Shown here: positions 4,829 through 59,443 of the stretch, piece by piece
How the letters are laid out: each line of letters starts with the position of its first letter
Position numbering within the stretch: the stretch's first letter is position 1
The notes under the pieces: model-generated
Seen by the model: only the letters and a program-made list of their open reading frames with translations
Database searches by the model: none
What the model was told of the DNA's origin: nothing
From: Polaromonas sp.
GTDB lineage: Bacteria > Pseudomonadota > Gammaproteobacteria > Burkholderiales > Burkholderiaceae_C
Assembly (NCBI GenBank): GCA_013823635.1
Contig: PNML01000005.1
Location: 1,742 to 65,741, forward strand
Direction: 5' to 3'
DNA: 64,000 bases
Position numbers and translations under genes: made by a program

Positions 4829-4879
4829 TTTTCAATAAAAAGTGCCTCCAGCGCTTTACTGATAACACTTGTCAGCTAT
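4829..4879 (-). repeat. AT-rich 51-nt dispersed repeat, copy A (purA/PRTase spacer)
   Basis: Reverse complement reads ATAGCTGAC aagtgttatcagta AAGCGCTG gaggcac TTTTTATTGAAAA. G+C is 19/51. Confidence 0.85.
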
Positions 4880-4897
4880 ATATTTTTGGAGTAAGCC

Positions 4898-5422
4898 ATG
4901 TTGACTGAAGACGGCAAACACCTGTACGTGTCTTACGACGAGTACCACAACCTGATTGAAAAACTCGCGCTCAAAATTCACCAGTCGGGCTGGGAGTTCG
5001 ACACCATCCTGTGCCTGGCCCGCGGTGGCATGCGTCCCGGCGACATCCTGAGCCGCATTTTCGACAAGCCCCTGGCCATCATGTCCACCAGCTCCTACCG
5101 CGCTGACGCGGGCACCGTGCAAGGGCGGCTGGACATTGCCCGGTTCATCACCACCCCCAAAGGTGAAATTGCGGGCAAGGTGTTGCTGGTGGACGACCTG
5201 GCCGACACCGGCCATACCCTGCAAGCCGTCATCAACACCCTGAAGAACCACTACGCCCCCATCACCGAGCTGCGCAGCGCCGTGATCTGGACCAAGGGTG
5301 TTTCCACCTTCACGCCCGACTACTCGGTGGAATTCCTCCCCACCAACCCCTGGATTCACCAACCTTTCGAGGGCTACGACAGCCTGCGCCCCGCCGCGTT
5401 GCTGGAAAAATGGAAGCTCTGA
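4898..5422 (+). CDS. type-I phosphoribosyltransferase, Gpt/XGPRT-like
   Basis: 174 aa with the PRPP-binding loop VLLVDDLADTGHT. A GGAG lies 7 nt upstream of the ATG. Confidence 0.75.
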   Translation: MLTEDGKHLYVSYDEYHNLIEKLALKIHQSGWEFDTILCLARGGMRPGDILSRIFDKPLAIMSTSSYRADAGTVQGRLDIARFITTPKGEIAGKVLLVDDLADTGHTLQAVINTLKNHYAPITELRSAVIWTKGVSTFTPDYSVEFLPTNPWIHQPFEGYDSLRPAALLEKWKL

Positions 5423-5431
5423 ACGCCCGCC

Positions 5432-6652
5432 ATGCCTGAATCATTGCCCACCCGGCTCATTCACCATTCCTACGTCGCTCCTTCGGGGTTCGACGCCGTG
5501 GCGCCGGGGGTGCACAAGGCATCGACGGTGTTTTTTGGCAACGTGCATGAGCTGCGCCACCGCGAGTGGCGCGACAAGTCCGGCTACACCTATGGCCTGC
5601 ACGGCACGCCCACCACCTTCACGCTCGAAGAGCGCATCGCCACCCTGGAAGGGGGCCAGCACTGCGTGCTGGTGCCCAGCGGTCTGGCCGCCGTGGCGTT
5701 GGTGGACCAGGCTTTTTTGCGGCAGGGCGACGAGTTGCTGGTGCCGGACAACGCCTACGGCCCCAACAAGGCGCTGGCTGAAGGGGAGCTCAAAGGCTGG
5801 GGCATCACCACCCGGTATTACGACCCCATGGACCCGGCGGACCTGGCCCGCCTGATCACCCCGGCCACCCGGCTGGTGTGGTTGGAGGCCCCAGGCTCCA
5901 TCACCCTGGAGTTTCCCGACCTGCGGGCATTGGTGGCCGTCATCACCCAGGCCAATGCCGAGCGCGCAGGGCAGGGGGGTGCCAACACCGCCCGGCCCCT
6001 GTTGAGCGTGCTGGACAACACCTGGGGCGCAGGCATCGCCTTCAACGCGTTTGAGCTGGGTGTGGACATGTCCATGCAGGCCCTCACCAAATACCCCAGC
6101 GGTGGCGCCGATGTGCTCATGGGCTCGGTGGTCACCCGCGACGCCACGCTGCACCACAGCCTGCTCATGACGCACATGCGCCTGGGCCTGGGTGTGGGCG
6201 GCAACGATGCCGAGCTGGTGTTGCGCGGCCTGCCCAGTGTGGCCCTGCGTTACCACGCGCAAGACGCCAGCACCCGCGCCCTGGCCGAGTGGATGCAGCA
6301 GCGCCCCGAAGTGGCTTGCGTGCTGCACCCCGCGTTGCCCAGCTCGCCGGGCCATGCCCATTGGCTGCGCGACGCCAGTGCGGCCGCCTGCCTGTTCAGT
6401 GCGGTGTTCAAACCCGAATACCCACAGGCGCTGGTGGACGCCTTTTGTGACCGGCTCCAGCGGTTCCGGCTGGGCTGGAGCTGGGCTGGGCCCATCAGCC
6501 TGTGCGCACCCTACGACGTGCCCGCCATCCGCCAGCGCCATTGGCCGCATGCGGGCGGGCTGGTCCGCTTCGCCATTGGGCTGGAGGCCGTGGCCGATTT
6601 GCAAGCCGACCTGACCCAGGCGTTGCAGGTGTTCGCCCGCCCCTCCGCCTGA
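5432..6652 (+). CDS. metC: cystathionine beta-lyase (Cys/Met-metabolism PLP enzyme)
   Basis: 406 aa with the PLP-lysine context QALTKYPSGGADV. Length and N-terminus fit MetC. Confidence 0.8.
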   Translation: MPESLPTRLIHHSYVAPSGFDAVAPGVHKASTVFFGNVHELRHREWRDKSGYTYGLHGTPTTFTLEERIATLEGGQHCVLVPSGLAAVALVDQAFLRQGDELLVPDNAYGPNKALAEGELKGWGITTRYYDPMDPADLARLITPATRLVWLEAPGSITLEFPDLRALVAVITQANAERAGQGGANTARPLLSVLDNTWGAGIAFNAFELGVDMSMQALTKYPSGGADVLMGSVVTRDATLHHSLLMTHMRLGLGVGGNDAELVLRGLPSVALRYHAQDASTRALAEWMQQRPEVACVLHPALPSSPGHAHWLRDASAAACLFSAVFKPEYPQALVDAFCDRLQRFRLGWSWAGPISLCAPYDVPAIRQRHWPHAGGLVRFAIGLEAVADLQADLTQALQVFARPSA

Positions 6653-6681
6653 CCATTTTTTTACCCCAACGAAAGCACCTT

Positions 6682-6882
6682 TTGGCCACTCCCAACTACG
6701 GATACGAAAAACGCCAGCGTGAGCTCGCCAAACGCCTGAAAAAAGAAGAAAAACTCAAATCCAAAGCCGACCGCAAACACGGCGAACCGGGTGAGTCCCC
6801 AGACGGTGGCGACATGGCACCGTCCCCCCAGAACTCGGGGGGCGACAGCACCACACCTCAGGCCGGCGGCTCGTCGGCTTGA
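6682..6882 (+). CDS. small Lys/Glu-rich hypothetical protein
   Basis: TTG 6682 is in frame with track ORF 6502..6882. The product begins PNYGYEKRQRELAKRLKKEEK. The RBS is weak, and the ORF overlaps the selU 3' end convergently by 25 nt. Confidence 0.3.
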   Translation: MATPNYGYEKRQRELAKRLKKEEKLKSKADRKHGEPGESPDGGDMAPSPQNSGGDSTTPQAGGSSA

Positions 6883-7928
6883 ATCAGCGCGCTGGCCACC
6901 TGGGCCAGCGATGCCGGGCTGCGGTCAGCCAGCACACACACCTGTGCCTGGTCAAACTGCACAAAGTTGCGCCCGATGGACTGCGCGTACATGGGGTCGT
7001 AGTGCATCGTCAGCAGGGCCTGAACCACCTCGGGCGTGTGTCCGGCCTGCACCTGGGCCACCCATTCCGCCACCTGCGCGTGGCCCCTGCGCTCGGTCAG
7101 GGCCAGCAGCCTCCGGCAGAAGAATGCCGGGTCGGACACGAAAAAATCGTAGTCTTCCAGCAGCAGCGCCACCCGCTCAGGGTCTGCCAGGCGCAGGTCG
7201 ATGCAGGGGCTGGCCCGCATCGCGTCCATGAGGGCGTCGGGCACTCGCAGGTCGCCCACCTTCTTGCTCTCGCTCTCCACGTACACCGGCCGCGCCGGGT
7301 CAAAGCCACGCAGAGCCGACCACACCAGGGTGTCAAAGCGCTTCTGGCTGGGTTGGGGCACACCCGGGATGTGGCCCAGGACTGAACTGCGGTGGTTGGC
7401 CAGGTCTTCCAGGTCCAGCACCTGGGCACCCTGGGCCGCCAGCGCCGTCAGCAGCCGGGTTTTGCCACTGCCGGTGGGACCACAGACCACCCGGTAGCGC
7501 AGCGCCTGCGACAGGGTGGGCAACTCGGCCAACACCGCCTGGCGAAACGCCTTGTACCCCCCCTCCAGCAAGGCCACCTGAAAACCGATGGCGCTCAGGA
7601 TGGTGGCCAGCGCACCGCTGCGGTTGCCACCCCGCCAGCAGTACACCAAGGGTTTCCAGCTTTTGGGGGCATCCAGCAGTTCCCGCTCGATGTGGTTGGC
7701 CACGTTTCGGGCCACCAGCGCCGCCCCGCGCTTTTTGGCTTCGAAGGCATTGACCTGCTTGTACAGTGTGCCAATGATCACCCGCTCTTCGTTGTTCAGG
7801 CTGGGCCAGTTGATGGCGCCTGGCACATGGTCCAGGGCATGCTCCAGCTCGGTGCGGGCGTCGATGATGGCGTCGAACTCGCTCAGTTGGTTCAGCGCCA
7901 GCGGGGCTGCCAGTGTTTTCAGGCTCAT
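6858..7928 (-). CDS. selU: tRNA 2-selenouridine synthase
   Basis: An N-terminal rhodanese domain carries the active-site loop CWRGGNRSG. A Walker A motif GPTGSGKT follows. Length is 356 aa. Confidence 0.85.
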   Translation of the reverse strand: MSLKTLAAPLALNQLSEFDAIIDARTELEHALDHVPGAINWPSLNNEERVIIGTLYKQVNAFEAKKRGAALVARNVANHIERELLDAPKSWKPLVYCWRGGNRSGALATILSAIGFQVALLEGGYKAFRQAVLAELPTLSQALRYRVVCGPTGSGKTRLLTALAAQGAQVLDLEDLANHRSSVLGHIPGVPQPSQKRFDTLVWSALRGFDPARPVYVESESKKVGDLRVPDALMDAMRASPCIDLRLADPERVALLLEDYDFFVSDPAFFCRRLLALTERRGHAQVAEWVAQVQAGHTPEVVQALLTMHYDPMYAQSIGRNFVQFDQAQVCVLADRSPASLAQVASALIQADEPPA

Positions 7929-7937
7929 GGTGGGGGG

Positions 7938-8630
7938 TTACTTCAGTTGGGGCAGCAGCACAGGCCAGACGTTGTCCAGCATCAGCGCCTGGGCGGTTTC
8001 GTTGGGGTGGATGCGGTCGGCCTGAAACAGGCTGGCCGCATCGGCAACATCGGCCACGTTGGCCAGCAAAAAGGGCACCAGCGCCGCCTGGTGCTGCCGG
8101 GAAACGGTCACAAACACCTGGCTGAAGTCGCGGGCGTATGCGCTGCCGTAGTTGGGCGGCACCTGCATGCCCACCACCGTCACCCTGGCCCCCGCCTGGC
8201 GGCTGGCCTGCGCCATGGCCGACAGGTTGGCCTCGGTCATGCGCAGGTCCAGGCCACGCAGGGCGTCGTTGCCCCCCAACTCCAACAGCACGTGGGTGGG
8301 CCGGTGCCGCTTGAGCAGGGCGGGCAAGCGGGAGCGGCCACCGGCGGTGGTGTCGCCACTGATGCTGGCGTTGATGACTTCTGCGGTGGGGAAGCGGGCC
8401 TTCAGCCGGGCTTGCAGCAATGCCACCCAGCCCGCGCCCCGCGCGAGTCCGTACTCGGCACTGAGCGAGTCCCCCAGCACCAGTACCCTGATGCCGGAGG
8501 GTGTTGATTTGCCTTGGGCCAGTGCGGGTGGGCTGCCCATTGTCCCGGCGCACAGGCAGGCCAAGGCAAGCAGGCTACAGTGTGTGATCAGGCGGCGACG
8601 TGTCGCCGACATGGAGTGGTTGTTGCGCAT
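7938..8630 (-). CDS. tesA: SGNH/GDSL arylesterase-thioesterase (TesA-like), secreted
   Basis: SGNH blocks VLGDSLSAEYG, GGNDALRG and DRIHPN are present, with a signal peptide. The start is ATG 8630 (alternative ATG 8612), inside the longer track ORF. Confidence 0.8.
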   Translation of the reverse strand: MRNNHSMSATRRRLITHCSLLALACLCAGTMGSPPALAQGKSTPSGIRVLVLGDSLSAEYGLARGAGWVALLQARLKARFPTAEVINASISGDTTAGGRSRLPALLKRHRPTHVLLELGGNDALRGLDLRMTEANLSAMAQASRQAGARVTVVGMQVPPNYGSAYARDFSQVFVTVSRQHQAALVPFLLANVADVADAASLFQADRIHPNETAQALMLDNVWPVLLPQLK

Positions 8631-9354
8631 GACTGAAGTTTTGAATTCGCGATCGGGCACCGGTGCGCAAACGCCGGCAGGGGTGGCAGAGGCCGCGGTG
8701 GTGCGCGTGGAGCGGCTGGGCAAGTCGGTGACGGACTCGGGCGGCACCCTGGCTATTTTGCGCGATATCGATTTTTCGCTGCGCCGGGGGGAAACGGCCG
8801 CCATTGTGGGGGCATCCGGTTCGGGCAAGAGCACGCTGCTGTCCATCGTGGCGGGCCTGGACACCCCGACCCAGGGCACCGTGTGGCTGGACGGGCAGGA
8901 CCTGTTTGCCCTGAGCGAGGACCAGCGCGCCGCTTTGCGGGCGCAGAAGGTGGGCTTTGTGTTCCAGAGCTTTCAGCTCATGGGCAACCTGACCGCGCTT
9001 GAAAACGTGATGCTCCCACTGGAGCTGGCCGGTCGGCGCGACGCCCGCAGCGCCGCCACCGACATGCTGCAGCGCGTGGGCCTGGGCCAGCGGCTGGGCC
9101 ACTACCCCAAGGTGCTGTCGGGTGGGGAGCAGCAACGGGTGGCGCTGGCCAGGGCCTTTGTGGTGCGGCCTGCCGTGTTGCTGGCCGACGAGCCCACCGG
9201 CAGCCTGGACTTCGCCACGGGCGAAACCATCATGCGGCTGATGTTTGACCTCAACCGCGAGCAGGGCACCACGTTGGTGCTGGTGACCCATGACCGGCAG
9301 ATTGCCGCCCGGTGCGAGCGCCGCATCACCATCGAAGCGGGTGCCATGGCCTGA
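8629..9354 (+). CDS. ybbA: ABC transporter ATP-binding protein, YbbA/LolD-like
   Basis: Walker A GASGSGKST, signature LSGGEQQR and Walker B LLADEPTGSLD are present. It is divergent from tesA, as in E. coli. The start is ATG 8629 (alternative 8611). Confidence 0.8.
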   Translation: MTEVLNSRSGTGAQTPAGVAEAAVVRVERLGKSVTDSGGTLAILRDIDFSLRRGETAAIVGASGSGKSTLLSIVAGLDTPTQGTVWLDGQDLFALSEDQRAALRAQKVGFVFQSFQLMGNLTALENVMLPLELAGRRDARSAATDMLQRVGLGQRLGHYPKVLSGGEQQRVALARAFVVRPAVLLADEPTGSLDFATGETIMRLMFDLNREQGTTLVLVTHDRQIAARCERRITIEAGAMA

Positions 9355-9404
9355 CGGCACCCACCCGCCTGGGTCGACCGGGGTCACGCGGGGATAATCG
9401 GGCC

Positions 9405-10154
9405 ATGTCTTCACACAAAGTTCTGTTCGGCTTTCACGCCGTGGGGGTGCGCCTGAAAACGGCGCCCCAGTCCATCGTCGAGGTGTATTACGAGGCCACC
9501 CGGCGCGATGCCCGCATGCGCCAGTTTCTGGACCGTGCCCGCGAGGCGGGTGTGCGCCTCATTGAGGCCGATGGCCTGCGCCTGTCCAAACTGGCCGGCA
9601 GCCACGGCCACCAGGGCGTGGCTGCACGGGTCGACCCTGTGGCCCAGATCACCTCGCTGGACGAGCTGCTGGAGCAGCTGGAAGCCGACGGCGTGAGCAA
9701 CCCCCTGCTGCTGGTGCTGGACGGCATCACCGATCCGCACAACCTCGGCGCCTGCCTGCGCGTGGCCGACGGGGCAGGGGCCCATGCCGTGATAGCACCC
9801 AAAGACCACGCGGCTGGCATCAACGCCACCGTGGCCAAGGTGGCCAGTGGCGCGGCCGAAACCATGCCGTACTTCATGGTGACCAACCTGGCGCGCACCC
9901 TGGGCGAATTGAAAGAACGCAACATCTGGGTGATTGGCACCAGCGACGATGCGCCCAACACCCTGTACCAGGTGGATTTGAAGGGCCCAGTGGCCCTGGT
10001 GCTGGGGGCCGAAGGTGCGGGCATGCGCCAGCTCACCCGCAAAACCTGCGATGAACTGGTGAGCATCCCCATGAAGGGCGCGGTGGAAAGCCTGAACGTG
10101 TCCGTGGCCAGCGGCGTGTGCCTGTACGAAGCCTTGCGCCAGCGCGGCGGCTGA
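9405..10154 (+). CDS. rlmB: 23S rRNA (guanosine-2'-O)-methyltransferase RlmB (SpoU/TrmH family)
   Basis: ATG 9405 gives MSSHKVLFGFHAV. C-terminal SpoU motifs LVLGAEGAGMR and IPMKGAVESLNVSVA are present. Confidence 0.85.
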   Translation: MSSHKVLFGFHAVGVRLKTAPQSIVEVYYEATRRDARMRQFLDRAREAGVRLIEADGLRLSKLAGSHGHQGVAARVDPVAQITSLDELLEQLEADGVSNPLLLVLDGITDPHNLGACLRVADGAGAHAVIAPKDHAAGINATVAKVASGAAETMPYFMVTNLARTLGELKERNIWVIGTSDDAPNTLYQVDLKGPVALVLGAEGAGMRQLTRKTCDELVSIPMKGAVESLNVSVASGVCLYEALRQRGG

Positions 10155-10195
10155 CCTGGGCCGCTGACCAGCACCGAGCCAACCCTGGCCCTGTA

Positions 10196-12118: not shown

Positions 12119-12145
12119 GGACCAGCATCCTAATTGGGATTGACG

Positions 12146-13398: not shown

Positions 13399-13409
13399 TG
13401 ATAAAATAA

Positions 13410-13460
13410 ATAGCTAACAAATGAATATATAAAAGCGCTGGACGGTGTTTTTATTGAAAA
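13410..13460 (+). repeat. AT-rich 51-nt dispersed repeat, copy B (SDR/chrA spacer)
   Basis: ATAGCTAAC aaatgaatatataa AAGCGCTG gacggtg TTTTTATTGAAAA. G+C is 15/51. Confidence 0.85.
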
Positions 13461-13464
13461 CTCA

Positions 13465-14208: not shown

Positions 14209-14283
14209 GGGTGGGGAGAAAGCTGGGTTGATCAAACCCCACGGCGTGGGGCGGTGTGCGAGTGGCGTGGTGGAAGCCACCGC

Positions 14284-14922: not shown

Positions 14923-14993
14923 TGGGGTGAACTGGCGAGTTGGTTAATTTATTCCACGATGTATCTTATGTAAAGTCACATACAAAGCAGTGA

Positions 14994-15038
14994 GCCGCCA
15001 GATGCCCACCTCTGCACCCGCTGACGGTGGGTGGCGGC
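14994..15038 (-). terminator. strong hairpin downstream of the acylase gene (possible terminator, no U-tract)
   Basis: GCCGCCA-gatg-CCCACC ... GGTGGG-TGGCGGC gives 13 bp in total. It lies 50 nt after the stop at 15089. Confidence 0.3.
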
Positions 15039-15088
15039 TGTGGGCGTTGATGACCGCGCCCATGTATCGCTGGGCGCCAGGGTCGTTG

Positions 15089-17722
15089 TCATGGCAACAC
15101 CTGCAAGGACGAGGTCCAACGGCTGGGCTGCAGCTGCAAGGGCCGGTATTGCACCTTGGCCCACGCGGCCGACATGTCGCGGTAACGCGACGACAACACG
15201 TTGCCACTCTGGCCCGTCTGGTAGATGAACACGCTTTTCTCCAGGTCCGCCAGGTCATACACCGCGCGCAAGGATGCGGCGTGGCGGTTGGCATACGGCT
15301 GCGCTGGGTTGTCCAGCTGAAACTGGCCGACGTTGACCGTGAAGGTGTCGCCGCCGGAGGGCACACTGACTTCAAAGGCTGGCGCCAGCAGCTTCACATT
15401 GCTGAAAGGCTGGTGCTTGGACACGGCGGGGTGGGCCTGGCCCCAGCGCCACTGGTCAACCCTAGGGCCATGGCGGGCCTGCAATTCGGTCAGGGCGGTG
15501 GCCAGCGCCCGCGAAGATGCGGCGGCACAACCGCCCTCCCCGCACCAAAAACCGTCGTTGCGGGCCAAGGCGTCTTCCATGGCGGTGCGGAAATGGCGCT
15601 TGCCGTACAAGGCCTTGGTTTTGGTTTCGCCCAGCGTGCGCACCAGCGCTTGCCGGGTGAACACATCTGCCCACGCAGAGAAAATCAGCGGTGCGGCGTG
15701 GTCCGCGCGCATCACACCGTCAAAGTGGGCCAATGCCTGTTGGGCGGCGGCGGCCAGGGGGTGGTCTGATGGGGTGTTTTGCAGCACCGGCAACAGTTTC
15801 AGGGTGGCCAGCGACAGTTCATCGGCCTGCAAGGCCTGCATGGACTCGCGGGTGTGGCGCGGCGTGGCCTGCAGCAGGGTTTCAATGCGCTGCTGGCGAT
15901 ACGGGTAGGTCCAGTCCTGGGTGATGAAATGCGGGTAGTCGGTGCCGTGGATGCGCTGGTTGGCGGTGGCCAGCCAGCCCCGCTGTTGCGCCTGGGCCGA
16001 GGCCGTGTGCCGGGCCGCAGCGGCGGCTGGGGTGGTGTCGGGGTGGAAGGTGGGGCTGGACGGCTCACCCAGGCGTACCTCGGGTGTGTCGGCATAGGGT
16101 ATCCAGCCATGCCAGTCGTAGCGGCGCTCCCATCCGGGTGACGGCGCCACGCCCCGGATGTCGTTGTCCGGGCCTCGCACGGGCACCTTGCCCGCCGCCT
16201 TGTAGGCCACATGCCCCTGCACGTCGGCCACCACCACGTTTTGCATGGGTGAGTGGTAGTGGCGGTAGGCGTGCAGCAGCTCGTCCACGCTGCGGGCGCG
16301 GTTGCCTTCCAGCCCGGCCAGCACCGTGTGGTTGTCGGCGTCCAGCGCGCTCCAGCGCAATGCCAGCACAAACCGGCGGGTGTCCAGCAGTTCGGTGTGG
16401 CTGGCCTGGGCGTCGCTCAGCACCGGGCCGTGGCGCGTGCTGCGCACCGTGTGGCGGACCTCGCCCTGCCCTTTCACCCGGATGATTTCCTCACGCGTGT
16501 CAAAGTCGGCCCAGGCGGCTGGCTGGCCGGGGGGCGCGGGCACGCGGTACTGCGCGGGGTTGTCGGGGTTGATCTCCTCCAGGTACAGGTCCTGCACATC
16601 GGGGGCGGTGTTGGTGAAGCCCCAGGCCAGGTGGGCGTTGCGGCCCAGCACCACAAAGGGCAGACCTGGCAGGGTGGCCCCCGTGACGTCCAGCTCGCCC
16701 TGACCGACTGCTGCGGGTGATTGCAGCCGGGCAAAGTACCAGACGGCCGGGGCGCTCAGGCCCAGGTGGGGGTCGTTGGCCAAGAGCGGACGCCCGCTGT
16801 GGGTGTGCGACCCCGCCACCACCCAGTTGTTGGAGCCCTTGCCATCCACCTCGCCCAGGGTGTGGGCCCAGTCGTTCACCGCTTGGGCCAAGGTGGTGGA
16901 CGCGGCGCGGGTCAACGTTGAATAAAAATTGACTCCATCGCTTTCTGCTGTTGGCTTTGCAGCTGCGTTTTTTGCAAATGGTGTGGCGCTGCTGTCGGCG
17001 TACACCCCCAGTCCCCGGTAGAGCTGGGCCAGGTCGGCGGTGGCGGCCGGCGGCTCTCCGGGGTAGGCTGGGAAGAGCTGCCACAGGCGCTCGGTGTCCA
17101 GCACCTGCAGGCTGGAGAGCCGCGCGAACTCGTTGCCCCAGTTGCCGCCCAGGTCCAGCGCCATCATCAGGGCCCAGCCCATGGCGTCGGTGGGGGTCCA
17201 GAAACGGCCCTCGCGTGCGGCGGCGCGGGGGTCAATGCCCAAGGCCAGAAACTCGGGCGTGAGCGCCTGCTGGCTGTGGGCCATGAAGCTGTTCACACCG
17301 TCGGCGTAAGCCTGCAGTGCGGCCTGGGCTGCGGTGGGCAGGCCCTGCCACTGGCGTTCGGCGGCCTGCCGAATGCCCAGGGTGCGCAGCAGTTTGTCGG
17401 TGGGCAGCGTGGCGGGCCCCAGCACCTCGGACAGTGTGCCGTGCATCACCCGCCGGTTGAACTCCAGCTGCCACGCCCGTTCCTGGGCGTGCACCATGCC
17501 CAGGGCTTTGAAGGCGTCCAGCGGGGTCTGCGCCAGGATGTGGGTCACATCGGCGGCATCGCGTTGGATGTGCACCGCCGCACCCAGGCCATCCAGGTGG
17601 GTGACACCCTGCATTTGGGGCTGGCTGCGCAGCGCATACACGGCGGTGGTGGCGCCCACGGCCAGAGCGGCGGCGCCGAGCAGGCCCAACACGGCCAGGG
17701 AGATTCGGGTCAATGGGGTCAT
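15089..17722 (-). CDS. penicillin-acylase-family Ntn hydrolase (possible acyl-homoserine-lactone acylase)
   Basis: 877 aa with a signal peptide. The beta-subunit N-terminal nucleophile context is GKGSNNWVVAG. Overall length is typical of PvdQ/QuiP/AiiD-type acylases. Confidence 0.85.
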   Translation of the reverse strand: MTPLTRISLAVLGLLGAAALAVGATTAVYALRSQPQMQGVTHLDGLGAAVHIQRDAADVTHILAQTPLDAFKALGMVHAQERAWQLEFNRRVMHGTLSEVLGPATLPTDKLLRTLGIRQAAERQWQGLPTAAQAALQAYADGVNSFMAHSQQALTPEFLALGIDPRAAAREGRFWTPTDAMGWALMMALDLGGNWGNEFARLSSLQVLDTERLWQLFPAYPGEPPAATADLAQLYRGLGVYADSSATPFAKNAAAKPTAESDGVNFYSTLTRAASTTLAQAVNDWAHTLGEVDGKGSNNWVVAGSHTHSGRPLLANDPHLGLSAPAVWYFARLQSPAAVGQGELDVTGATLPGLPFVVLGRNAHLAWGFTNTAPDVQDLYLEEINPDNPAQYRVPAPPGQPAAWADFDTREEIIRVKGQGEVRHTVRSTRHGPVLSDAQASHTELLDTRRFVLALRWSALDADNHTVLAGLEGNRARSVDELLHAYRHYHSPMQNVVVADVQGHVAYKAAGKVPVRGPDNDIRGVAPSPGWERRYDWHGWIPYADTPEVRLGEPSSPTFHPDTTPAAAAARHTASAQAQQRGWLATANQRIHGTDYPHFITQDWTYPYRQQRIETLLQATPRHTRESMQALQADELSLATLKLLPVLQNTPSDHPLAAAAQQALAHFDGVMRADHAAPLIFSAWADVFTRQALVRTLGETKTKALYGKRHFRTAMEDALARNDGFWCGEGGCAAASSRALATALTELQARHGPRVDQWRWGQAHPAVSKHQPFSNVKLLAPAFEVSVPSGGDTFTVNVGQFQLDNPAQPYANRHAASLRAVYDLADLEKSVFIYQTGQSGNVLSSRYRDMSAAWAKVQYRPLQLQPSRWTSSLQVLP
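16916..16966 (-). repeat. AT-rich 51-nt dispersed repeat, diverged copy inside the acylase CDS
   Basis: Reverse complement reads GCAGCTGCA aagccaacagcaga AAGCGATG gagtcaa TTTTTATTCAACG. It matches copy A at 31/51 positions. It shares 13 nt (AGCTGCAAAGCCA) exactly with copy C1. Confidence 0.65.
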
Positions 17723-17758
17723 GGTGCGGTCGGGATGGGGGTGGGTGGTGCTGGGGCT

Positions 17759-20630: not shown

Positions 20631-20724
20631 TGCCTTGTTGAGTGGGCCAGGTCCACCACAGGCCGCACAATCTGATGATAGCCACCGGCCCTGCCCCGCC
20701 GCCCCACCACCCTGCCCTCACACC

Positions 20725-28589: not shown

Positions 28590-29678
28590 TCAGCTCAGGT
28601 CGGCCAAGGGGTGGGCGTGTGCCGGCCAGGGGCTCTGGAAAAACGGGGCCACCATGTCGGGGGTGACGTCCTCGGCGCGGGCGGGGTGCCAGCGGGGGGC
28701 ATGGTCCTTGTCCACCGCCAGGGCACGGATGCCCTCCACCGTTTCGCTGCTGGCGCCGCTGCGCCCCAAGTGAACGGCGTGGAAGCAGTGGCGCACCATG
28801 TCGCGCTCCATGCGCAAATCGTCTGCCAGGCCCATTTTTCGCGCTCGCCTCACCTGTTCCAGCACCACATGCAACATCAGCGGTGAACGCTGGCGCAACA
28901 CCGCCGCGGTTTCCGTGGCAAACGTGGAGGTGCCGCGCTCCAGTGCCGCGAGTATCTCAGGCACTGTGCCCAGAGAAAAATACTCATCAATTTGCGACCT
29001 GGCGCTTTTGTATATTGGTGTGGGTGCTATCAACTTGGTGGACACCAGGTGTTCCACGGCATTGGCCGACTGGAACGGCGTTGCCCCCAATTCTGCCCAC
29101 AGCACGTTCAAGCGCCCGGAGTCGATGCAACCATCGGCCAGGCCCCAGGCGACGGCATCACCGGCCTCCAGGCTCTGGCCGGTCAGGGCCAGCCACTCAC
29201 CGACCCGACCCGGGCAGCGGCTGAGGAAAAAGCCCCCACCCACATCAGGAAACAGGCCGATGCCGGTTTCCGGCATGGCCATGCGGGTGCGCTGGGTGAC
29301 CACACGCAGGCTGCCTCCCTGGCTGATGCCCATGCCGCCGCCCATGACCACACCGTCCATGAACGCGATGTAAGGCTTGGGGTAGGTGTGGATGAGGTGG
29401 TTGAGCCGGTACTCTTCGGTGAAAAAGTCCTCCAGCCGGGGGTCGCCCGCGAGAGCAGCCTGGTGGAAAAACCGGATGTCGCCTCCCGCGCAAAAGTGGC
29501 CAAACGGTGCCTCCTTGCCCGTGCCGCGGATGGCGACGGCCAGCACCTCGGGGTCATCGCGCCAGCGCAGCAGCGTGGCGGTGAGGTCGCGCACCATGTC
29601 CAAGGTGAGCGCGTTGAGTGCGCGTGGTCGGTTGAGGCTGATGAAACCCACACTGCCCTGCTGCTGGACCATCACCAT
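28590..29678 (-). CDS. enoyl-CoA hydratase/isomerase family, 3-hydroxyisobutyryl-CoA-hydrolase type
   Basis: Motifs FISLNRPRALNAL, FCAGGDIR and MDGVVMGGGMGIS are present. The ORF is open to 29819, but third-position GC is lower upstream, so I preferred ATG 29678. The start is uncertain. Confidence 0.7.
   Translation of the reverse strand: MVMVQQQGSVGFISLNRPRALNALTLDMVRDLTATLLRWRDDPEVLAVAIRGTGKEAPFGHFCAGGDIRFFHQAALAGDPRLEDFFTEEYRLNHLIHTYPKPYIAFMDGVVMGGGMGISQGGSLRVVTQRTRMAMPETGIGLFPDVGGGFFLSRCPGRVGEWLALTGQSLEAGDAVAWGLADGCIDSGRLNVLWAELGATPFQSANAVEHLVSTKLIAPTPIYKSARSQIDEYFSLGTVPEILAALERGTSTFATETAAVLRQRSPLMLHVVLEQVRRARKMGLADDLRMERDMVRHCFHAVHLGRSGASSETVEGIRALAVDKDHAPRWHPARAEDVTPDMVAPFFQSPWPAHAHPLADLS
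28980..29030 (-). repeat. AT-rich 51-nt dispersed repeat, diverged copy inside the HIBCH-type hydrolase CDS
   Basis: Reverse complement reads ATAGCACCC acaccaatatacaa AAGCGCCA ggtcgca AATTGATGAGTAT. It matches copy B at 29/51 positions, including 10/14 in the N14 block. Confidence 0.5.
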
Positions 29679-32601: not shown

Positions 32602-33591
32602 TCAATGTTTCAAGTCTTCAAAAATGGGGGCACTGGCGCGGTTGGCCTGTGCCTGTATCTGCTGGATTTCCAAGGGGTTGAGCAGGCGGTTGGGCACCAG
32701 CTCCCCGCCCGCAATGTGTGCCGTCCCCAGCAAGCTGTTGGGCGTGGGCCCAAACACCGCCACCTCGGCGGTGTCTGGCAAGGTGGTGCGGCGGCGCAAT
32801 CCGCTCAGGAAGCGGCCTGCATCTTCGTCGCACAAGGTGACAGGGTGGTGATGGGACAACAGCGCGGTGACCGGCATCAGGGCCGCCACGCGCAGGTCTT
32901 CGTCCATTGCTTCCAGGTCGGCCAGGCTGACGCAGTCGTGGGCCAGGTAGTCGCCCGTCTGGGTGCGCCGCAACGCCCGCAGGTGGCCCACGGTGCCCAA
33001 TGCCTTGGCCACGTCTTCACCCAGGGTGCGGATGTAGGTGCCTTTGCTGCAATATGCCTCAATTTCAATAGCTACAAAGTCTTTCACATCAAGCGATAGA
33101 CTCAATTTTAATTCATAAATTTCGATGTGGCGGGGTTCGCGGACAACCTCCACCCCTGCCCTGGCGTACTCGTACAAGGCCTTGCCGTCTTTTTTGAGGG
33201 CCGAGTACATGGGGGGCACCTGGGTCTGGGGACCGGTCATGGCCGCCGCCACACGGGCCAACAGGGCGGGTGTCACTTCGGGCACGGCGCAGGTCTGCAC
33301 CACATCGCCTTCCGCATCGCCGGTGGCGGTCGCTTGGCCGAGGCACAGCAGGGCCCGGTAACGCTTGCGGGCGTCCAGGTGTTGCTGGCTGAACTTGGTG
33401 GCTGCGCCAAAGCACAGCGGCAACACGCCGGTGGCCAGCGGGTCCAGCGTACCGGTGTGCCCGGCTTTGTCGGCGCGCAGCAACCACTTGGCCTTTTGCA
33501 AGGCCTGGTTGCTGGAAAGACCCAGCGGTTTGTCGAGCAACAACACCCCATGCACAGGGCGCCGCTGCACCCTGGTGCGTGGCGCGTTCAT
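32602..33591 (-). CDS. truB: tRNA pseudouridine(55) synthase
   Basis: [12 protein letters not shown] (catalytic Asp) and [10 protein letters not shown] motifs. It lies downstream of rbfA. Confidence 0.9.
33068..33118 (+). repeat. AT-rich 51-nt dispersed repeat, diverged copy inside the truB CDS (antisense)
   Basis: ATAGCTACA aagtctttcacatc AAGCGATA gactcaa TTTTAATTCATAA. It matches copy E at 31/51 positions and the acylase copy at 22/25 over the 8-mer-to-tail part. Confidence 0.6.
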
Positions 33592-40449: not shown

Positions 40450-42063
40450 TCAGCCGGAGGACGCCGCCACCAACGCCTGTGTGTAAGGGTTTTCGGGCTT
40501 GTCCAGCACCGCCTGCCAAGGACCGGCTTCCACCACCCGCCCCGCTTGCAACACCATCACATGGTGGGCCATGGCGCGGATGACGCCCATGTCGTGGGTG
40601 ATGAGCAGGTAGCTCAAGCCGCGCTCCCGTTGCAGGCGCTGCAGCAGTTGCAGCACCTGCTTTTGCACCGTCACGTCCAGCGCGCTGGTGGGTTCGTCCA
40701 GCACCAGCACATCCGGCTGCACCACCAGGGCCCTGGCAATGGCCAGTCGCTGGCGCTGCCCACCGGAAAACTCGTGGGGGTAGCGCGACAGCCATTGGCG
40801 CGTGAGGCCGTCGGCGGGTGTCGCGTCGGCCGTCAACAACCCCACTTCCTTCAATGCCTCGACGACCTGGGCCTGGCGCGCCTCTGCGCCGAGGTGCGGT
40901 GCGTGGACCAGCAGACCTTCAGACACGATCTGCTCCACCGTCATCCGGGGGGAGAGTGACGAAAACGGGTCTTGAAACACCACTTGTACCTGTCGGCGCT
41001 GCGCACGTTTGGCGGCGATTGGCTTGGCCCAGGGCTGGCCACCCACGCGAAGGTCGCCCTCGAACGGCAACAGGTCCAGCGCGGCCAGCGCCAGGGTGGA
41101 TTTGCCGGAGCCCGATTCGCCCACCACCCCCAGGGTGCACCCGCGGGGCAACACAAAGTCGGCACCATGCAGCGCCACCGCCGCGCCCCGGCGAAACCAG
41201 CCGCGCCAGCCCGGCAAGGGCACGGGGTAGGCAACACGCACGGCCTGACCGGCCAGGGGCGGCTCACCCGTGGCGGGCGTTTGCGCCACCGCCAAGGGAT
41301 CCCGCTCGGGTCGGCTGTCCAGCAACTGCCGGGTGTAGGGGTGCTGGGGATGGGCAAACACGTCGGCCACCCTGCCCTGCTCCACCACGACGCCGCGTTC
41401 CATCACGGCCACGCGGTCGGCGAAGCGTTTGACCATTTGCAGGTCGTGGGTGATGAGCAGCACCGCCATGCCGTGTTGGCGTTGCAGCTCAGCCACCAAG
41501 CCCAAAATCTGGCCGCGCAGCGAGACGTCGAGCGCGGTGGTGGGCTCGTCGGCCAGCAGCAACTTGGGCCGGCTGGCCAGCGCCATGGCAATGACGACGC
41601 GCTGGCGCTGCCCACCACTGAGCTGGTGCGGGTAGGACCTGGCTTTTTGCGCGGGGTCGGGTAGGCCCACTGAGTTCAATAAATCAATAGCATGAACAAT
41701 AGATTCATCATGCGTTAGAAGTCTTTTTTGATTAAAAACCTCGGCCACTTGGTCGCCCACGGTCATCAGGGGGTTCAGAGCCGTCATGGGCTCTTGGAAG
41801 ACCATGGCCACCTCGCCCCCGCGCACCTGACGCAGTTCGGGCTCGGTCATGCCGAGGAGGTCGCGGCCCTCCAGCAACGCCTTGCCGCTGGTGCGCGCCT
41901 GGGGCACCAGCCCCAGCAAGCTGAGCGCGGTGATGGTTTTGCCCGAGCCTGACTCCCCCACCAGGGCCAGCTTTTCACCCGGGTGCATCTGGAGGCTCAC
42001 CCCTTTGACCACCTCGTGTCCGCCAAAGGACACCCGCAAATCCTGTAGGTCCAGCAGGCTCAT
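40450..42063 (-). CDS. yejF: ABC transporter ATPase with two fused cassettes (YejF-type peptide/microcin C importer)
   Basis: Two Walker A motifs (GESGSGKT, GESGSGKS) and two signature motifs (LSGGQRQR, FSGGQRQR) are present. The ATG overlaps the yejE stop. Confidence 0.85.
   Translation of the reverse strand: MSLLDLQDLRVSFGGHEVVKGVSLQMHPGEKLALVGESGSGKTITALSLLGLVPQARTSGKALLEGRDLLGMTEPELRQVRGGEVAMVFQEPMTALNPLMTVGDQVAEVFNQKRLLTHDESIVHAIDLLNSVGLPDPAQKARSYPHQLSGGQRQRVVIAMALASRPKLLLADEPTTALDVSLRGQILGLVAELQRQHGMAVLLITHDLQMVKRFADRVAVMERGVVVEQGRVADVFAHPQHPYTRQLLDSRPERDPLAVAQTPATGEPPLAGQAVRVAYPVPLPGWRGWFRRGAAVALHGADFVLPRGCTLGVVGESGSGKSTLALAALDLLPFEGDLRVGGQPWAKPIAAKRAQRRQVQVVFQDPFSSLSPRMTVEQIVSEGLLVHAPHLGAEARQAQVVEALKEVGLLTADATPADGLTRQWLSRYPHEFSGGQRQRLAIARALVVQPDVLVLDEPTSALDVTVQKQVLQLLQRLQRERGLSYLLITHDMGVIRAMAHHVMVLQAGRVVEAGPWQAVLDKPENPYTQALVAASSG
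41687..41737 (+). repeat. AT-rich 51-nt dispersed repeat, most diverged candidate copy inside the yejF CDS (antisense)
   Basis: ATAGCATGA acaatagattcatc ATGCGTTA gaagtct TTTTTGATTAAAA. It matches copy A at 27/51 positions. The block spacing and GC anchors are conserved. Confidence 0.4.
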
Positions 42064-46958: not shown

Positions 46959-47009
46959 TTATCGGTATTTTTGACATCTAGCGCCTGCGTTTATTGAATA
47001 GTCAGCTAT
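46959..47009 (-). repeat. AT-rich 51-nt dispersed repeat, copy D (fabI/ligase spacer)
   Basis: Reverse complement reads ATAGCTGAC tattcaataaacgc AGGCGCTA gatgtca AAAATACCGATAA. It ends 9 nt before the ligase ATG. Confidence 0.8.
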
Positions 47010-51786: not shown

Positions 51787-51876
<90 letters not shown>

Positions 51877-51883
51877 CGAATGT

Positions 51884-51915
51884 AGCCCAAGTGAGTGATT
51901 CACTTGGGCTTTTTC
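51884..51915 (+). terminator. Rho-independent terminator after tRNA-Ser
   Basis: An 11-bp stem AGCCCAAGTGA/TCACTTGGGCT with loop gtgat is followed by TTTT. Confidence 0.7.
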
Positions 51916-55706: not shown

Positions 55707-55728
55707 AATTGCGGTTTCCTGTGCTGCC

Positions 55729-56832
55729 ATGTTATTCCATTCTTCCATTCGTCGAGAGCTGGCCCGCAGCTTTGGTGGCACCTTGCTGGTGCTGTTCACC
55801 ATCGTGGTCACCATCATGCTCATCCGCACCCTCAGCCTGGCCACATCGGGCAGCGTGGACCCCAAAGAAGTCATGCTGGTGCTCGGCTACACCGTGCTGG
55901 GGCGCTTGCACATCATCCTGACCATGGCCTTGTTCATTGCCGTGGTGTCGGTGCTGTCGCGCATGCACAGCGACAGCGAAATGGTCATCTGGATGGGCGC
56001 CGGACGTGGCCTGGCGGGCATGACCGGCCCGGTGCTCCGCTTTGCGTGGCCGGTGCTGCTGGCCATGGCGCTGCTGGTGCTGCTGGCGTGGCCATGGGCC
56101 AACCGCCAGACCGCCGAGTTGCGTGACCGTTTTGCCCAGCGGGGTGACCTGCAACGCGTGCAGCCGGGCCAATTCCAGGCCGATGCACAGGGACGGCGCG
56201 TGTTTTTCATCGACAAAGACACCGCAGAGGGCACCCAGGGACGCAATGTGTTCATCTCCAGCCGCGATGAGCGCGGCGAAAGCACCATTTCCGCCCGGGC
56301 GGCCACCGTGCAGGCAGGGAGCAACGGCCAGTTCCTGCGACTGGAAACCGGTCAGCGGCTGGAGGTGTCGGCAGACCTGCAAAGCCTGCGGGTGAGTGAA
56401 TTTGAAGAGCATCTGGTGCGCATCAGTGAAAAAACCTTCATTTTGGGGGACGACCTGGGCATGAAGACCCGCAGCACCTGGCGACTGTGGACCGACGGCA
56501 GCCCACAGGCCAAGGGTGAGCTCGCCTGGCGTGTGGGCCTGTTGCTGAGTGCGTTCAACCTGCTGCTGTTGGGGCTGGCCATTGCATCGGCCAACCCACG
56601 GGCCGGCCGCAGTGGCAACGTGGCGTTTGCGCTGTTTGCGTTCCTGCTGTACTACAACCTGCTCAACATGGGCGAAAGCTGGGTGTCTCGCGGACGGGTA
56701 TCGGCCGTGGCCTGGACGCTCATGCTGCACGGCACCGTGTTCCTGGGTGCGCTGGCCTGGCTGTACAAGCGCCATGAAAACATCAGCTTCGCCTCCTGGT
56801 GGCGCGGCTGGACCAGGCGGGCCGCCACATGA
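55729..56832 (+). CDS. lptF: LPS export ABC permease LptF
   Basis: YjgP/YjgQ family (MLFHSSIRRELARSFGGTLLVLFTIV). It is divergent from pepA, as in E. coli. Confidence 0.85.
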   Translation: MLFHSSIRRELARSFGGTLLVLFTIVVTIMLIRTLSLATSGSVDPKEVMLVLGYTVLGRLHIILTMALFIAVVSVLSRMHSDSEMVIWMGAGRGLAGMTGPVLRFAWPVLLAMALLVLLAWPWANRQTAELRDRFAQRGDLQRVQPGQFQADAQGRRVFFIDKDTAEGTQGRNVFISSRDERGESTISARAATVQAGSNGQFLRLETGQRLEVSADLQSLRVSEFEEHLVRISEKTFILGDDLGMKTRSTWRLWTDGSPQAKGELAWRVGLLLSAFNLLLLGLAIASANPRAGRSGNVAFALFAFLLYYNLLNMGESWVSRGRVSAVAWTLMLHGTVFLGALAWLYKRHENISFASWWRGWTRRAAT

Positions 56833-57947: not shown

Positions 57948-58348
57948 GCGCCCTCCACACTCGCCCTACCCTCCCCATCAGGACCAACGCCATGCAAGGT
58001 GTGATTTTGTTTGCCCATGGCTCGCGCGACCCGTTGTGGCGTGGCCCCATCGAGGCCGTGGCCCAGCAGGTGCTGGCGCTGTCGCCCCACACCCCCGTGG
58101 CCTGCGCCTACCTGGAGCTGTGCGCCCCCGACCTGCCCACCGCCGTGCAAACCCTGGTGGACCAGGGGGTCAGCCGCATCAACGTGTTGCCCGTGTTCTT
58201 TGGCATGGGCAAACATGCCCGTGAAGATTTGCCCGCCCTGTTGCAAAACCTCCAACAGCAGCACCCGGAAGTCCAGTTCAAGGCCCTGGCCGCGGCGGGG
58301 GAAAGCCCCGCCATCACCACCCTGCTGGCACAACTGGCGCTGGCCTGA
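57944..58348 (+). CDS. cbiX: CbiX/SirB-type sirohydrochlorin chelatase (small form)
   Basis: ILFAHGSRDPLWRGPIE...VLPVFFGMGKHAREDLP. The ATG at 57944 overlaps the lptG stop; ATG 57992 is an alternative start. Confidence 0.65.
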   Translation: MSALHTRPTLPIRTNAMQGVILFAHGSRDPLWRGPIEAVAQQVLALSPHTPVACAYLELCAPDLPTAVQTLVDQGVSRINVLPVFFGMGKHAREDLPALLQNLQQQHPEVQFKALAAAGESPAITTLLAQLALA

Positions 58349-58387
58349 GCACCACACCCAGCCCCACACCCTCAGCGCACCCCCACC

Positions 58388-59332
58388 ATGAACCTGCACC
58401 AGTTCCGCTTTGTTCAAGAGGCCGTGCGCCGCAACCTCAACCTGACCGAAGCCGCCAAGGCCTTGCACACCTCGCAGCCGGGGGTGTCCAAATCCATCAT
58501 TGAGTTGGAAGACGAGTTGGGCATCCAGATTTTTGCCCGCCACGGCAAGCGCATCCGCCGCGTGACCGAACCGGGTCAGCATGTGCTGAAAAGCATCGAC
58601 ATCATCCTGCGCGAGGTCAACAACCTGCGCCGCATCGGCCAGCAGTTTTCGGCCCAGGACAGCGGCACCCTGTCCATCGCCACCACCCACACCCAGGCGC
58701 GCTACGTGTTGCCCGTTCCGGTGGCCAAGCTGCGCCAGACCTACCCCAAGGTGGCCATCAGCCTTCACCAGGGCTCGCCCGACCAGGTGGCGCAGATGTT
58801 GCTGACCGATGTGGCCGACATCGGCATGGCCACCGAGTCGCTGTCGCAGTACGACGAGCTCATCACCCTGCCCTGCTACGAATGGCAACACGTGCTGGTG
58901 TTGCCGGTGAGCCATGCGCTGGTGGACAAGGAGCGCATTGGCCTGGAGGACCTGGCTGACCTGCCGCTGGTCACCTACCACCCCTCGTTCACCGGGCGCA
59001 CCCGCATCGACAACGCGTTTGCCGCACGCGAACTCCAGCCCAACATCGTGCTCGAAGCCATCGACTCGGATGTCATCAAAACCTACGTGAAGCTGGGCAT
59101 GGGCGTGGGCATCGTGGCCGAAATGGCGCTGCAAAACGACAGCCGTGACCCCGACCTGGTGGCCCGCCCGCTGGGCCACCTGCTGGGCACGAATGTGGCC
59201 CGCGTGGCCTTCAAGCGCGGCGCCTATTTGCGCAACTACGTGTTGAAATTTGCTGAACTGCTGAGTGACCGCCTCAGCAAAGACCTGATCCTGAAGGCCA
59301 TGGAAGGCCACGGCAACAGCTACCAACTGTGA
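58388..59332 (+). CDS. cysB: LysR-family regulator CysB/Cbl
   Basis: MNLHQFRFVQEAVRRNLNLTEAAKALHTSQPGVSKSIIELEDELG is nearly the canonical CysB HTH. 314 aa. Confidence 0.85.
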   Translation: MNLHQFRFVQEAVRRNLNLTEAAKALHTSQPGVSKSIIELEDELGIQIFARHGKRIRRVTEPGQHVLKSIDIILREVNNLRRIGQQFSAQDSGTLSIATTHTQARYVLPVPVAKLRQTYPKVAISLHQGSPDQVAQMLLTDVADIGMATESLSQYDELITLPCYEWQHVLVLPVSHALVDKERIGLEDLADLPLVTYHPSFTGRTRIDNAFAARELQPNIVLEAIDSDVIKTYVKLGMGVGIVAEMALQNDSRDPDLVARPLGHLLGTNVARVAFKRGAYLRNYVLKFAELLSDRLSKDLILKAMEGHGNSYQL

Positions 59333-59392
59333 CAGCCAACGCCCGGTGCCAACCGGTGGCGGGAACACCCGCTGGTCGAAAACTCAAATTAG

Positions 59393-59443
59393 ATAGCTGA
59401 CTGTTGTTTAAAATAAAGCGCTGCAAGCGTTTTTTATTCATTT
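59393..59443 (+). repeat. AT-rich 51-nt dispersed repeat, copy E (cysB/ybdL spacer)
   Basis: ATAGCTGAC tgttgtttaaaata AAGCGCTG caagcgt TTTTTATTCATTT. Confidence 0.85.

Follow-up and report, generated by a model that had tools for sequence, protein, structure and literature searches.

A dispersed AT-rich repeat in gene spacers of a Polaromonas contig and its likely place among REP-like elements of Comamonadaceae

Introduction

Why do several gene spacers of a GC-rich chromosome contain AT-rich sequences laid out on one plan, and what kind of element are they? The question is raised by a stretch of 64,000 nucleotides of Polaromonas sp. (GenBank assembly GCA_013823635.1, contig PNML01000005.1, positions 1,742 to 65,741 of the forward strand), here called the window, which is an ordinary betaproteobacterial chromosomal segment with a G+C content of 0.647 and carries hflC, purA, nusA-infB-rbfA-truB-typA, smpB, fabI, and hrpA. 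A first-pass annotation had listed six AT-rich copies of a 51-nt repeat in blocks of 9, 14, 8, 7, and 13 nt and offered three explanations for them: a miniature mobile element, a protein-binding or uptake-type signal, and a shared regulatory module. We find that the six spacers carry copies of one dispersed repeat, and we think it on balance probable, if far from settled, that they are decayed, now immobile members of a REP-like non-autonomous repeat family of Comamonadaceae.

Six spacers of the window carry one repeat

The six copies (A, B, C1, C2, D, and E) were reproduced letter for letter in their blocks, strands, and coordinates, and they align without gaps over the full 51 nt. The 9-mer ATAGCTGAC occurs four times in the window, at 4871-4879 (-), 22193-22201 (+), 47001-47009 (-), and 59393-59401 (+), whereas dinucleotide-preserving shuffles averaged 0.07 and never exceeded 1; the 0.5 occurrences first quoted as the expectation for this exact word were therefore conservative. 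When ATAGCTGAC-N14-ARGCG was searched with up to two mismatches, the matches in the window were exactly the six copies, against 0.39 expected. A profile built from the six copies detected them in the window with nhmmer E-values of 1e-10 to 5e-14. Copies A and B have G+C contents of 0.37 and 0.29, in agreement with the percentages given before. Mean pairwise identity among the six is 0.89 in the 9-mer, 0.78 in the 8-mer, and 0.52 in the 13-mer, and it amounts to 0.39 and 0.43 in the two spacers between blocks, where composition leads one to expect 0.30-0.31.

The closeness of the two spacers and the 13-mer to the compositional expectation is what an accidental resemblance among unrelated AT-rich spacers would produce. 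Such a resemblance is refuted by the shuffle controls and is at odds with the nhmmer E-values and with the dozens of related copies in other Comamonadaceae genomes, and we regard it as scarcely credible. The six AT-rich spacers are genuine copies of a dispersed repeat and not chance look-alikes, as had been claimed for them.

The canonical unit and its taxonomic range

The pattern ATAGCTGAC-N14-AAGCGCT, which specifies 16 bases, was scanned against one genome per species from about 185,000 species and returned at least 117 loci (loci from other genomes are cited below by L numbers). About half of the matches listed belong to Comamonadaceae, namely to Acidovorax, Paracidovorax, Comamonas, Hydrogenophaga, Giesbergeria, Polaromonas, Rhodoferax, Ottowia, and Aalborgicola; the remaining matches listed are scattered over isolated, unrelated taxa in the way chance would scatter 16 specified bases. 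In the other genera the canonical unit is about 65-70 nt long and reads tGCTAtcAAAtt-GATAGCTGaC-AGCGCTTg(loop)cAAGCGCT-gGAGGCc-(A- or T-run). The consensus of 67 copies, tgCTAc.aAATtg ATAGCTGAC aGCGCTtgt...aCAAGCGCT GGAGGC..ATTT..Ct..aAat, has three short palindromes, after which comes a run of A or of T. Its conserved 5' box, (G/A)ATAGCTG(A/C)C, has ATAG and not GTAG.

The N14 of the Comamonadaceae loci is nonrandom. It consists of AGCGCTTg and a loop, complementary to the cAAGCGCT that follows, and canonical copies of other genera accordingly carry the imperfect palindrome AGCGCTTg..cAAGCGCT. Only the 3' arm was fixed in the search pattern; the 5' arm emerged in the consensus by itself. AT-rich sequence stands in place of the 5' arm in all six window copies. 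By this comparison, the 9-mer of the window is the conserved 5' box and the 8-mer the 3' arm of the middle hairpin, and the 14-nt spacer is what decay has left of the 5' arm and loop of this hairpin, which other genera keep intact. Two copies preserve a direct connection to the canonical unit. Copy A has 23-25 consecutive positions (AAGCGCTxGAGGCACTTTTTATT) in common with L014, L042, and L062, which come from Acidovorax and another Burkholderiaceae metagenome-assembled genome (MAG), and the C1 spacer aagccatATCCATC still matches the canonical AGCGCTTATCCATC and ends in the canonical ATCCATC. Because C1 and A match canonical copies in this way, the window copies are best read as family members whose middle-hairpin 5' arm became AT-rich. 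AT-rich-spacer variants like those of the window are also found in Hydrogenophaga and Rhodoferax MAGs (L055, L064, L106, L107, and L117). A second nhmmer profile, made from the pattern-selected canonical copies, recovered copy A alone in the window, because the subfamilies are too diverged for a single profile.

The repeat did not match a known family. At the gathering score of Rfam 15, only tRNA-Ser was found in the window, and the 15 loci with canonical copies gave only a tRNA and an unrelated toxic small RNA elsewhere in L010; an E-value search of L014 560-800, which holds a canonical copy, returned only noise. The toxic small RNA (RF02278, 'Betaproteobacteria toxic small RNA', 65.5 bits) lies at 1634-1696 of L010, an Acidovorax MAG, about 1.7 kb from a cluster of four matches and without overlap. 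Searches of the literature by taxon with repeat terms and by canonical sequence strings yielded no matching description, and the sole relevant item, BRE, is different (see the last section). The first-pass annotation had not recognised the repeat as REP/BIME, ERIC, Correia, RPE, or a described uptake sequence, and that view stands on the same two results, the absence of an Rfam match and of a published description in these searches. Together, the scan and the searches suggest a repeat family that is characteristic of Comamonadaceae and common there, with no description found in the searchable literature. If it is as widespread as the scan suggests, Comamonadaceae, which include plant pathogens and wastewater and freshwater organisms, carry a repeat on the scale of REPs that is absent from Rfam.

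Intergenic copies and their neighbours

Three of the six copies sit between co-directional genes, with the T-rich end 0-4 nt from the upstream stop codon and the AGCTAT end 9-18 nt before the next start. Copy A (4829..4879, -) fills the 69-nt spacer between purA and a phosphoribosyltransferase gene, its T-rich end following the purA stop codon directly and its AGCTAT end lying 18 nt ahead of the next ATG. Copy B (13410..13460, +) likewise fills the 66-nt spacer between an SDR gene and chrA, both on the - strand, so that the filling of these two spacers was reported correctly before. Copy D (46959..47009, -) fills the approximately 61-nt spacer between the FabI and ATP-dependent DNA ligase genes, and the ATG follows its AGCTAT end by 9 nt, without a Shine-Dalgarno sequence. 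Copies C1 (22130..22180, -) and C2 (22193..22243, +) form the left and right halves of a head-to-head inverted pair, with 12 nt between their 9-mers; together they fill a convergent spacer of 132 nt between the TauE and DUF6352 genes, the T-rich end of each beside a stop codon. Copy E (59393..59443, +), in the 127-nt spacer between LysR and aminotransferase genes, is the sole copy whose 9-mer-first reading agrees with the direction in which its flanking genes run. The window has seven divergent spacers, all of them without a copy.

The same placement was seen in other genomes, where 73 copies from the matches listed were examined with crude gene calls based on codon usage. Classified by what lies on the 5' and 3' sides of the copy, the intergenic copies comprise 20 stop/start, 15 stop/stop, 13 start/stop, and 3 start/start cases; three further intergenic copies lack one flanking gene at the locus edge. 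Divergent spacers are depleted (at most 3 of 51, P = 4e-4 at an expected share of 25%), and 48 of the 51 classified copies have a stop codon on one side or both. In co-directional spacers either orientation occurs (20 versus 13). Many copies have a stop and a start codon both within about 20 nt and are therefore inside probable operons. Twenty-two matches (about 30%) fall within crude gene calls, and those on the coding strand are read in one common frame, ATA GCT GAC AGC GC, giving IADSA...SAGGQ; an example is the copy in an SDR gene common to Acidovorax and Polaromonas.

Only two plasmid records carry a copy, both of them large Comamonadaceae replicons. In one of these, the Diaphorobacter sp. 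HDW4A plasmid NZ_CP049911.1, a near-canonical copy (L213, 107811-107875, 89% identity to the consensus) covers the final 31 nt of cobN as annotated and the whole 35-nt spacer between cobN and a TonB-dependent receptor gene, an arrangement like that of A, B, and D. The copy probably supplies the cobN stop codon.

Inheritance and insertion

Whether the copies move or are inherited was addressed by comparing orthologous loci, as had been proposed. The organism is uncultured; several metagenome contigs encode its phosphoribosyltransferase protein exactly, and in these same-species contigs (L118-L123) copy A differs by 1-2 bases. The closest named relatives of the window are Hydrogenophaga, and L208 is a Hydrogenophaga MAG. 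In the syntenic relatives L208-L211, whose flanking proteins are 92-97% identical, all six junctions are occupied with unchanged orientation. The identity of the copies to those of the window is 0.79 in L208, 0.71 in L209, and 0.65 in L210, which is approximately that of the four-fold degenerate sites of the flanking genes (0.75, 0.62, and 0.62); the copies therefore change at a roughly neutral rate. Across the orthologous comparisons GCTA(T/C) is almost invariant, and AGCGCTT is kept in most of them and decayed in several. The six copies are thus old, vertically inherited, and decayed, and not recently transposed. In L209, the ortholog of spacer 22124-22255 (about 1761-1968) has a (CCTGA)n tandem run of about seven units, CCTGACCTGACCTGACC..., beside the inverted pair, and the CTGAC of this run is also the end of the repeat's 9-mer.

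Presence and absence at more distant loci point to insertion at an earlier time. At the SDR/chrA junction, nine more distant relatives lack the copy and have either overlapping genes (ATGA) or a short spacer between them, from which it follows that copy B was inserted before the Hydrogenophaga-like clade arose. TGATG occurs on each side of copy B (13399-13464; GTGTGATGAG...CAATGATGTCG) and may have arisen by a 5-bp duplication of the overlapping stop/start of the ancestor, or by coincidence. Of 80 relatives, about 13 have an element-like insert between purA and the phosphoribosyltransferase gene, and most others have a short spacer there; in one lineage the spacer holds a half-element of opposite orientation, whose hairpin loop contains the purA stop codon. 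In L173 and L172, the purA 3' end (about 60-100 nt upstream of the start of the match) reads TTC AGC GCT TGA AGCGCTGCAGGCTGAATTTTCAAAC, with the stop codon as the loop of an AGCGCT..AGCGCT hairpin, and the final two purA codons are part of this half-element, which is oriented opposite to copy A.

The marks that a transposase might have left were sought as well. The spacers of orthologs have diverged so far that no single register aligns them. Target-site duplications gave no signal: for 66 copies, the longest word common to both flanks averages 4.58 nt, compared to 4.55 nt in mismatched pairs. Direct repeats at similar offsets flank two canonical copies, one of 9 bp (AAAATACGC) at about 440-545 of L113 and one of 7 bp (ACACCAT) at about 4040-4125 of L010, and may reflect chance or rare events. 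By eye, no terminal inverted repeat could be made out, the ends tGCTAtcAAAt and AtttGGCt being only faintly alike. A MITE (a miniature transposable element with inverted repeats) dependent on a DDE transposase was rejected for want of a target-site-duplication signal. Of the miniature mobile element first suggested, the part that concerns origin is supported by the insertions B, G, and J (the last two are described below) and by the polymorphism of the purA spacer. Mobility in the present lineage is not: the copies there are old, vertical, and decayed, and neither a terminal inverted repeat by eye, a duplication signal, nor, in 1.9 Mb of fragments, a transposase was found.

Copies inside genes

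The five diverged copies reported inside open reading frames were also located (F to J), which brings the window to 11 copies, six of them intergenic, or about one per 6 kb. F, G, H, and I were found by the profile built from the six window copies. Copy G (16916..16966, -) lies in frame in a penicillin-amidase-family gene (15089-17722, - strand), in an unaligned stretch between the alpha-chain and beta-chain matches and ahead of the Ser that aligns with PDB beta-chain residue 1; its ortholog in L208 is nearly canonical. Copy J (62481..62543, +), inside hrpA on the - strand, belongs to an AT-rich stretch of about 160 nt that corresponds to an insertion of about 50 residues relative to E. coli HrpA, and it has the intact palindrome ATCGCTTT..AAAGCGAT. 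Relative to solved or E. coli homologues, G and J are insertions in linker regions.

The other three copies leave the length of the gene unchanged. Copy F (33068..33118, +) coincides with the sole patch of truB (32602-33591, - strand) that has a low G+C content at third codon positions (GC3), and it is not an insertion because the length does not change: TruB aligns through the patch without extra residues with PDB homologues and 13 Comamonadaceae sequences. Its motif is kept as CGCTTGAT-N13-TAGCTAT at synonymous sites in L204-L206 (TruB identity of 83-91% and 78%) and is recognisable, with substitutions, in L207 (72%); in Variovorax (67%) the patch is largely GC-rich, and TTT GCT ATC is still there. 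Copy H (41687..41737, +), a weaker match in a double ABC ATPase gene (40450-42063, - strand), likewise leaves the length unchanged relative to the M. tuberculosis homologue; GC3 of the patch is 0.10, and the ortholog in L205 has CGCTTGAT-N13-TAGCTAT. Copy I (28977..29033, -), in an enoyl-CoA hydratase / 3-hydroxyisobutyryl-CoA hydrolase gene, retains the 9-14-8 spacing without a change in length, and in L205 its ortholog agrees with the canonical 3' half in 20 positions out of 21. F, H, and I may have originated by short-patch gene conversion onto sequence that was similar by chance, or by selection for a site at the DNA level. No standard repeat mechanism explains how length-neutral copies keep AT-ending codons over the long term in genomes of 65% G+C, and such copies make it testable how a dispersed motif is copied or selected into genes.

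Inside the confident genes of the window, a scan for stretches of 16 codons whose GC3 is at most 0.38 gave seven patches, of which six fall on G, I, F, H, and J (16907-16996, 28974-29021, 33037-33138, 41656-41757, and 62419-62586); the seventh, at 55707-55757, is near an uncertain gene start. Local dips in GC3 are a practical detector of copies.

The length-neutral in-gene copies and the conservation of boxes at a fixed distance are reasons to consider that the two boxes, about 23 bp apart from centre to centre, and the A/T tract form a recognition site for a host DNA-binding system, for instance a protein with a nucleoid-organising, topological, or recombination-related role, the copies being kept or created by selection or biased gene conversion and mobility being secondary or absent. 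The boxes are conserved at 0.89 and 0.78 between spacers that are near chance, at a spacing fixed without indels, both orientations are used, and GCTA(T/C) is nearly invariant in all orthologous pairs. The length-neutral F, H, and I retain rare AT-ending codons down to 72% protein identity, and the low-GC3 patches of confident genes are all copies, bar the one near an uncertain gene start. The nine sites between 4854 and 59418 (C1/C2 counted once) are also more evenly spaced than random, with gaps of 3.5-12.4 kb between successive copies and a coefficient of variation of 0.41, a value as low as which arose in about 1% of random placements (P ~0.01) in a post hoc test; two copies in L106 are only 1.4 kb apart, and even spacing is hence no general rule. 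Against a host site also stand the real insertions B, G, and J, the overall rate of change near that of four-fold sites, the decay of the AGCGCTT box in several orthologs, and the lack of a known candidate binding protein. We consider it improbable that the repeat is such a site, but not so improbable that it should be put aside. More doubtful again is the stronger proposal that a host system, architectural or topological or acting via recombination or uptake, maintains the boxes and, through selection or through gene conversion that is biased and of short patch length, even writes the motif over conserved coding sequence in truB, the ABC ATPase gene, and the enoyl-CoA hydratase gene. If true, it would explain at once why almost all the low-GC3 patches are copies, why the motif persists at synonymous sites across genera, and why copies are spaced by 3-12 kb.

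Promoters, terminators, and folding

The arrangement of A, B, and D between a stop codon and the next start also brings to mind a shared regulatory cassette, in the form of an outward promoter (with an UP-like A/T block, a -35 element within GCGCTTGA, and a -10 element after AGCTA), a bidirectional intrinsic terminator, or both. The core is flanked by A-rich 5' and T-rich 3' sequence, and the AGCTAT end is 9-18 nt before the next start in these three copies. Among the four sigma-70-like matches in 4000-23500, two fall on copies, on A (TTTACT-18-TATATT) and on C1 (TTGATG-18-TAAAAT). B, D, and E have no promoter-like match, and the -10-like hexamers are not conserved in the orthologs in L208 and L209, where TATATT has become CTTATT or TTTTTT; a sigma-70 promoter was rejected on these grounds. 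Moreover, C1, C2, and E face no gene downstream, and as promoters they would fire into gene 3' ends or antisense.

A terminator fares little better. A hairpin followed by a T-run is clear only at E, at 59415-59433 (+), and is weaker at C1 and G; A, B, and D are oriented wrongly to terminate their genes, and the intrinsic terminator was dismissed with E as its single fitting copy. Strong termination is also unlikely because many copies lie within operons between stop and start. The window hairpins are weak and inconsistent, and the use of both orientations in co-directional spacers speaks against a cassette of either type. The genome does use ordinary terminators quite unlike the repeat, as the tRNA-Ser(GGA) gene demonstrates (51787-51910), which is followed by a textbook intrinsic terminator with a 12-bp stem at 51884-51910 and TTTTT. 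Other candidates gave no consistent match by eye, namely sigma-32-like CTTG-N17-CTAT, sigma-54, the IHF core, and the DnaA box, and equally integron attC, dif/Xer, and the LysR T-N11-A motif. The regulatory module named by the first-pass annotation thus retains the promoter- or terminator-like matches at some copies and loses its generality, since these are not conserved, and we hold a shared cassette to be quite unlikely. A more modest effect on the next gene may exist: at B and D, where the next gene lacks a Shine-Dalgarno sequence and begins 9-14 nt beyond AGCTAT, the copy would supply the A/U-rich leader of that gene.

A proposed history of the repeat

The account that we prefer, with the modest confidence stated at the outset, is that the six spacers are decayed members of a REP-like family. 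A non-autonomous element with a hairpin, the repeat would have been spread in trans by a single-strand (HUH-type) transposase, in the way REPs are mobilised; mobilisation of this type would explain hairpins without duplications. Insertion would have taken place beside stop codons without target-site duplications. In the lineage of the window, movement would have ceased and the 5' hairpin arm would have been lost through G:C-to-A:T decay, and the copies would persist as intercistronic and 3'-end spacer DNA that is read through within operons. There, A, B, and D may supply an A/U-rich leader to the next gene, and E, and perhaps C1/C2, may act as a weak terminator.

Several observations weigh against this history. 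A tblastn search of low power with an E. coli RAYT query, which covered only 1.9 Mb of fragments, gave no transposase or RAYT below E = 1. The GTAG/CGTC tag found at the stem foot of REPs is absent; the repeat has ATAGCTG(A/C)C in its place, several bases from the stem. Loop and tail vary widely among the copies of one genome, with no sign of recent bursts, and the window copies do not consistently fold better than shuffles (z of -2.3 to +1.1). Conservation in the window has the form of fixed boxes with nearly random spacers, as in a protein-binding site. Finally, F, H, and I overlay conserved coding sequence with unchanged length and are kept at synonymous sites in relatives; as they add no residues, insertion cannot produce them.

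Whatever its origin, the repeat has practical consequences for annotation, in which it can fuse genes spuriously, misplace start codons, and produce local anomalies of GC3, and it could serve as a typing or phylogenetic marker.

Comparison with known systems

We compared the repeat with the small repeats and dispersed motifs described in other bacteria. BRE (Hot et al. 2011, PMC3110155) is a repeat of about 90 bp with 69% G+C that is often in tandem and has 1-29 copies per genome. Like the repeat treated here, BRE is undercharacterised, and it is reported from Bordetella and Comamonadaceae genomes, where it is mostly intergenic and sometimes in coding sequences. ATAGCTG, AAGCGCT, and CAGCTAT do not occur in the supplementary BRE sequence file of that paper, and BRE is a different element.

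The DNA uptake sequences of Neisseria (DUS) and Pasteurellaceae (USS), which accumulate by uptake-biased recombination, share with the repeat a conserved core followed by an A/T tract, length-neutral copies in genes (F, H, and I, without indels), equal use of the strands, inverted pairs downstream of genes such as C1/C2 between convergent genes, and lineage-specific dialects of a motif common to a bacterial family. In contrast, the repeat is far sparser, at about one copy per 6 kb and not about one per kb; its motif is much longer (50-70 nt) and has two cores; intergenic enrichment is strong, with 6 of 11 copies in the small non-coding fraction of the window; and real insertions are documented. 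To our knowledge, sequence-specific DNA uptake has not been reported for Comamonadaceae. An uptake signal was rejected because its fit is confined to F, H, and I while the density (11 copies in 64 kb, 6 intergenic) and the insertions B, G, and J do not suit it, and we rate it as very unlikely. What survives of the earlier proposal of a protein-binding or uptake-type signal is that it is the sole easy explanation of the length-neutral copies; its uptake half is weakened by the same density and insertions.

Among the palindromic repeats, the Correia elements of Neisseria, which are MITEs, resemble the repeat in being small and near gene ends and in their capacity to carry promoter-like hexamers that influence neighbouring transcripts. 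They differ by their 26-bp terminal inverted repeats, their TA duplication, and their IHF site; the repeat gave no duplication signal and, on inspection, neither a consistent IHF core nor a terminal inverted repeat. ERIC or IRU sequences of Enterobacteriaceae are, like the repeat, imperfect palindromic intergenic repeats, often in transcribed units and conserved family-wide, with mostly vertical inheritance, differences in presence and absence, and no known transposase; ERIC is about 127 bp long, has an unrelated sequence, and is not reported in conserved coding sequence. The RPE of Rickettsia offers a parallel for G and J, with in-frame insertion at permissive linker sites and one reading frame per orientation, but it is 100-150 bp long and Rickettsia-restricted, and insertion does not explain the length-neutral F, H, and I.

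The closest resemblance is to the REP/REPIN sequences of Gammaproteobacteria, which are mobilised by RAYT. Both are short, have a high copy number and a family-specific sequence, and show no target-site duplication. Conserved stems with variable loops, seen here in canonical copies, and a conserved box 5' of the hairpin are common to both, as are the location just after stop codons in co-directional or convergent spacers and the inverted doublets exemplified by C1/C2. Apart from the missing tag, the repeat departs from REPs in its three palindromes and A/T tail, in the loss of the hairpin from the window copies, and in the presence of some copies in genes. Without a GTAG tag, and with no RAYT found in the fragments searched, it does not qualify as a REP, nor does it qualify as a MITE or an uptake sequence, and we file it among the small dispersed repeats. 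To find the enzyme that mobilises the repeat, or to learn that there is none, would extend the REP/RAYT picture beyond Gammaproteobacteria.

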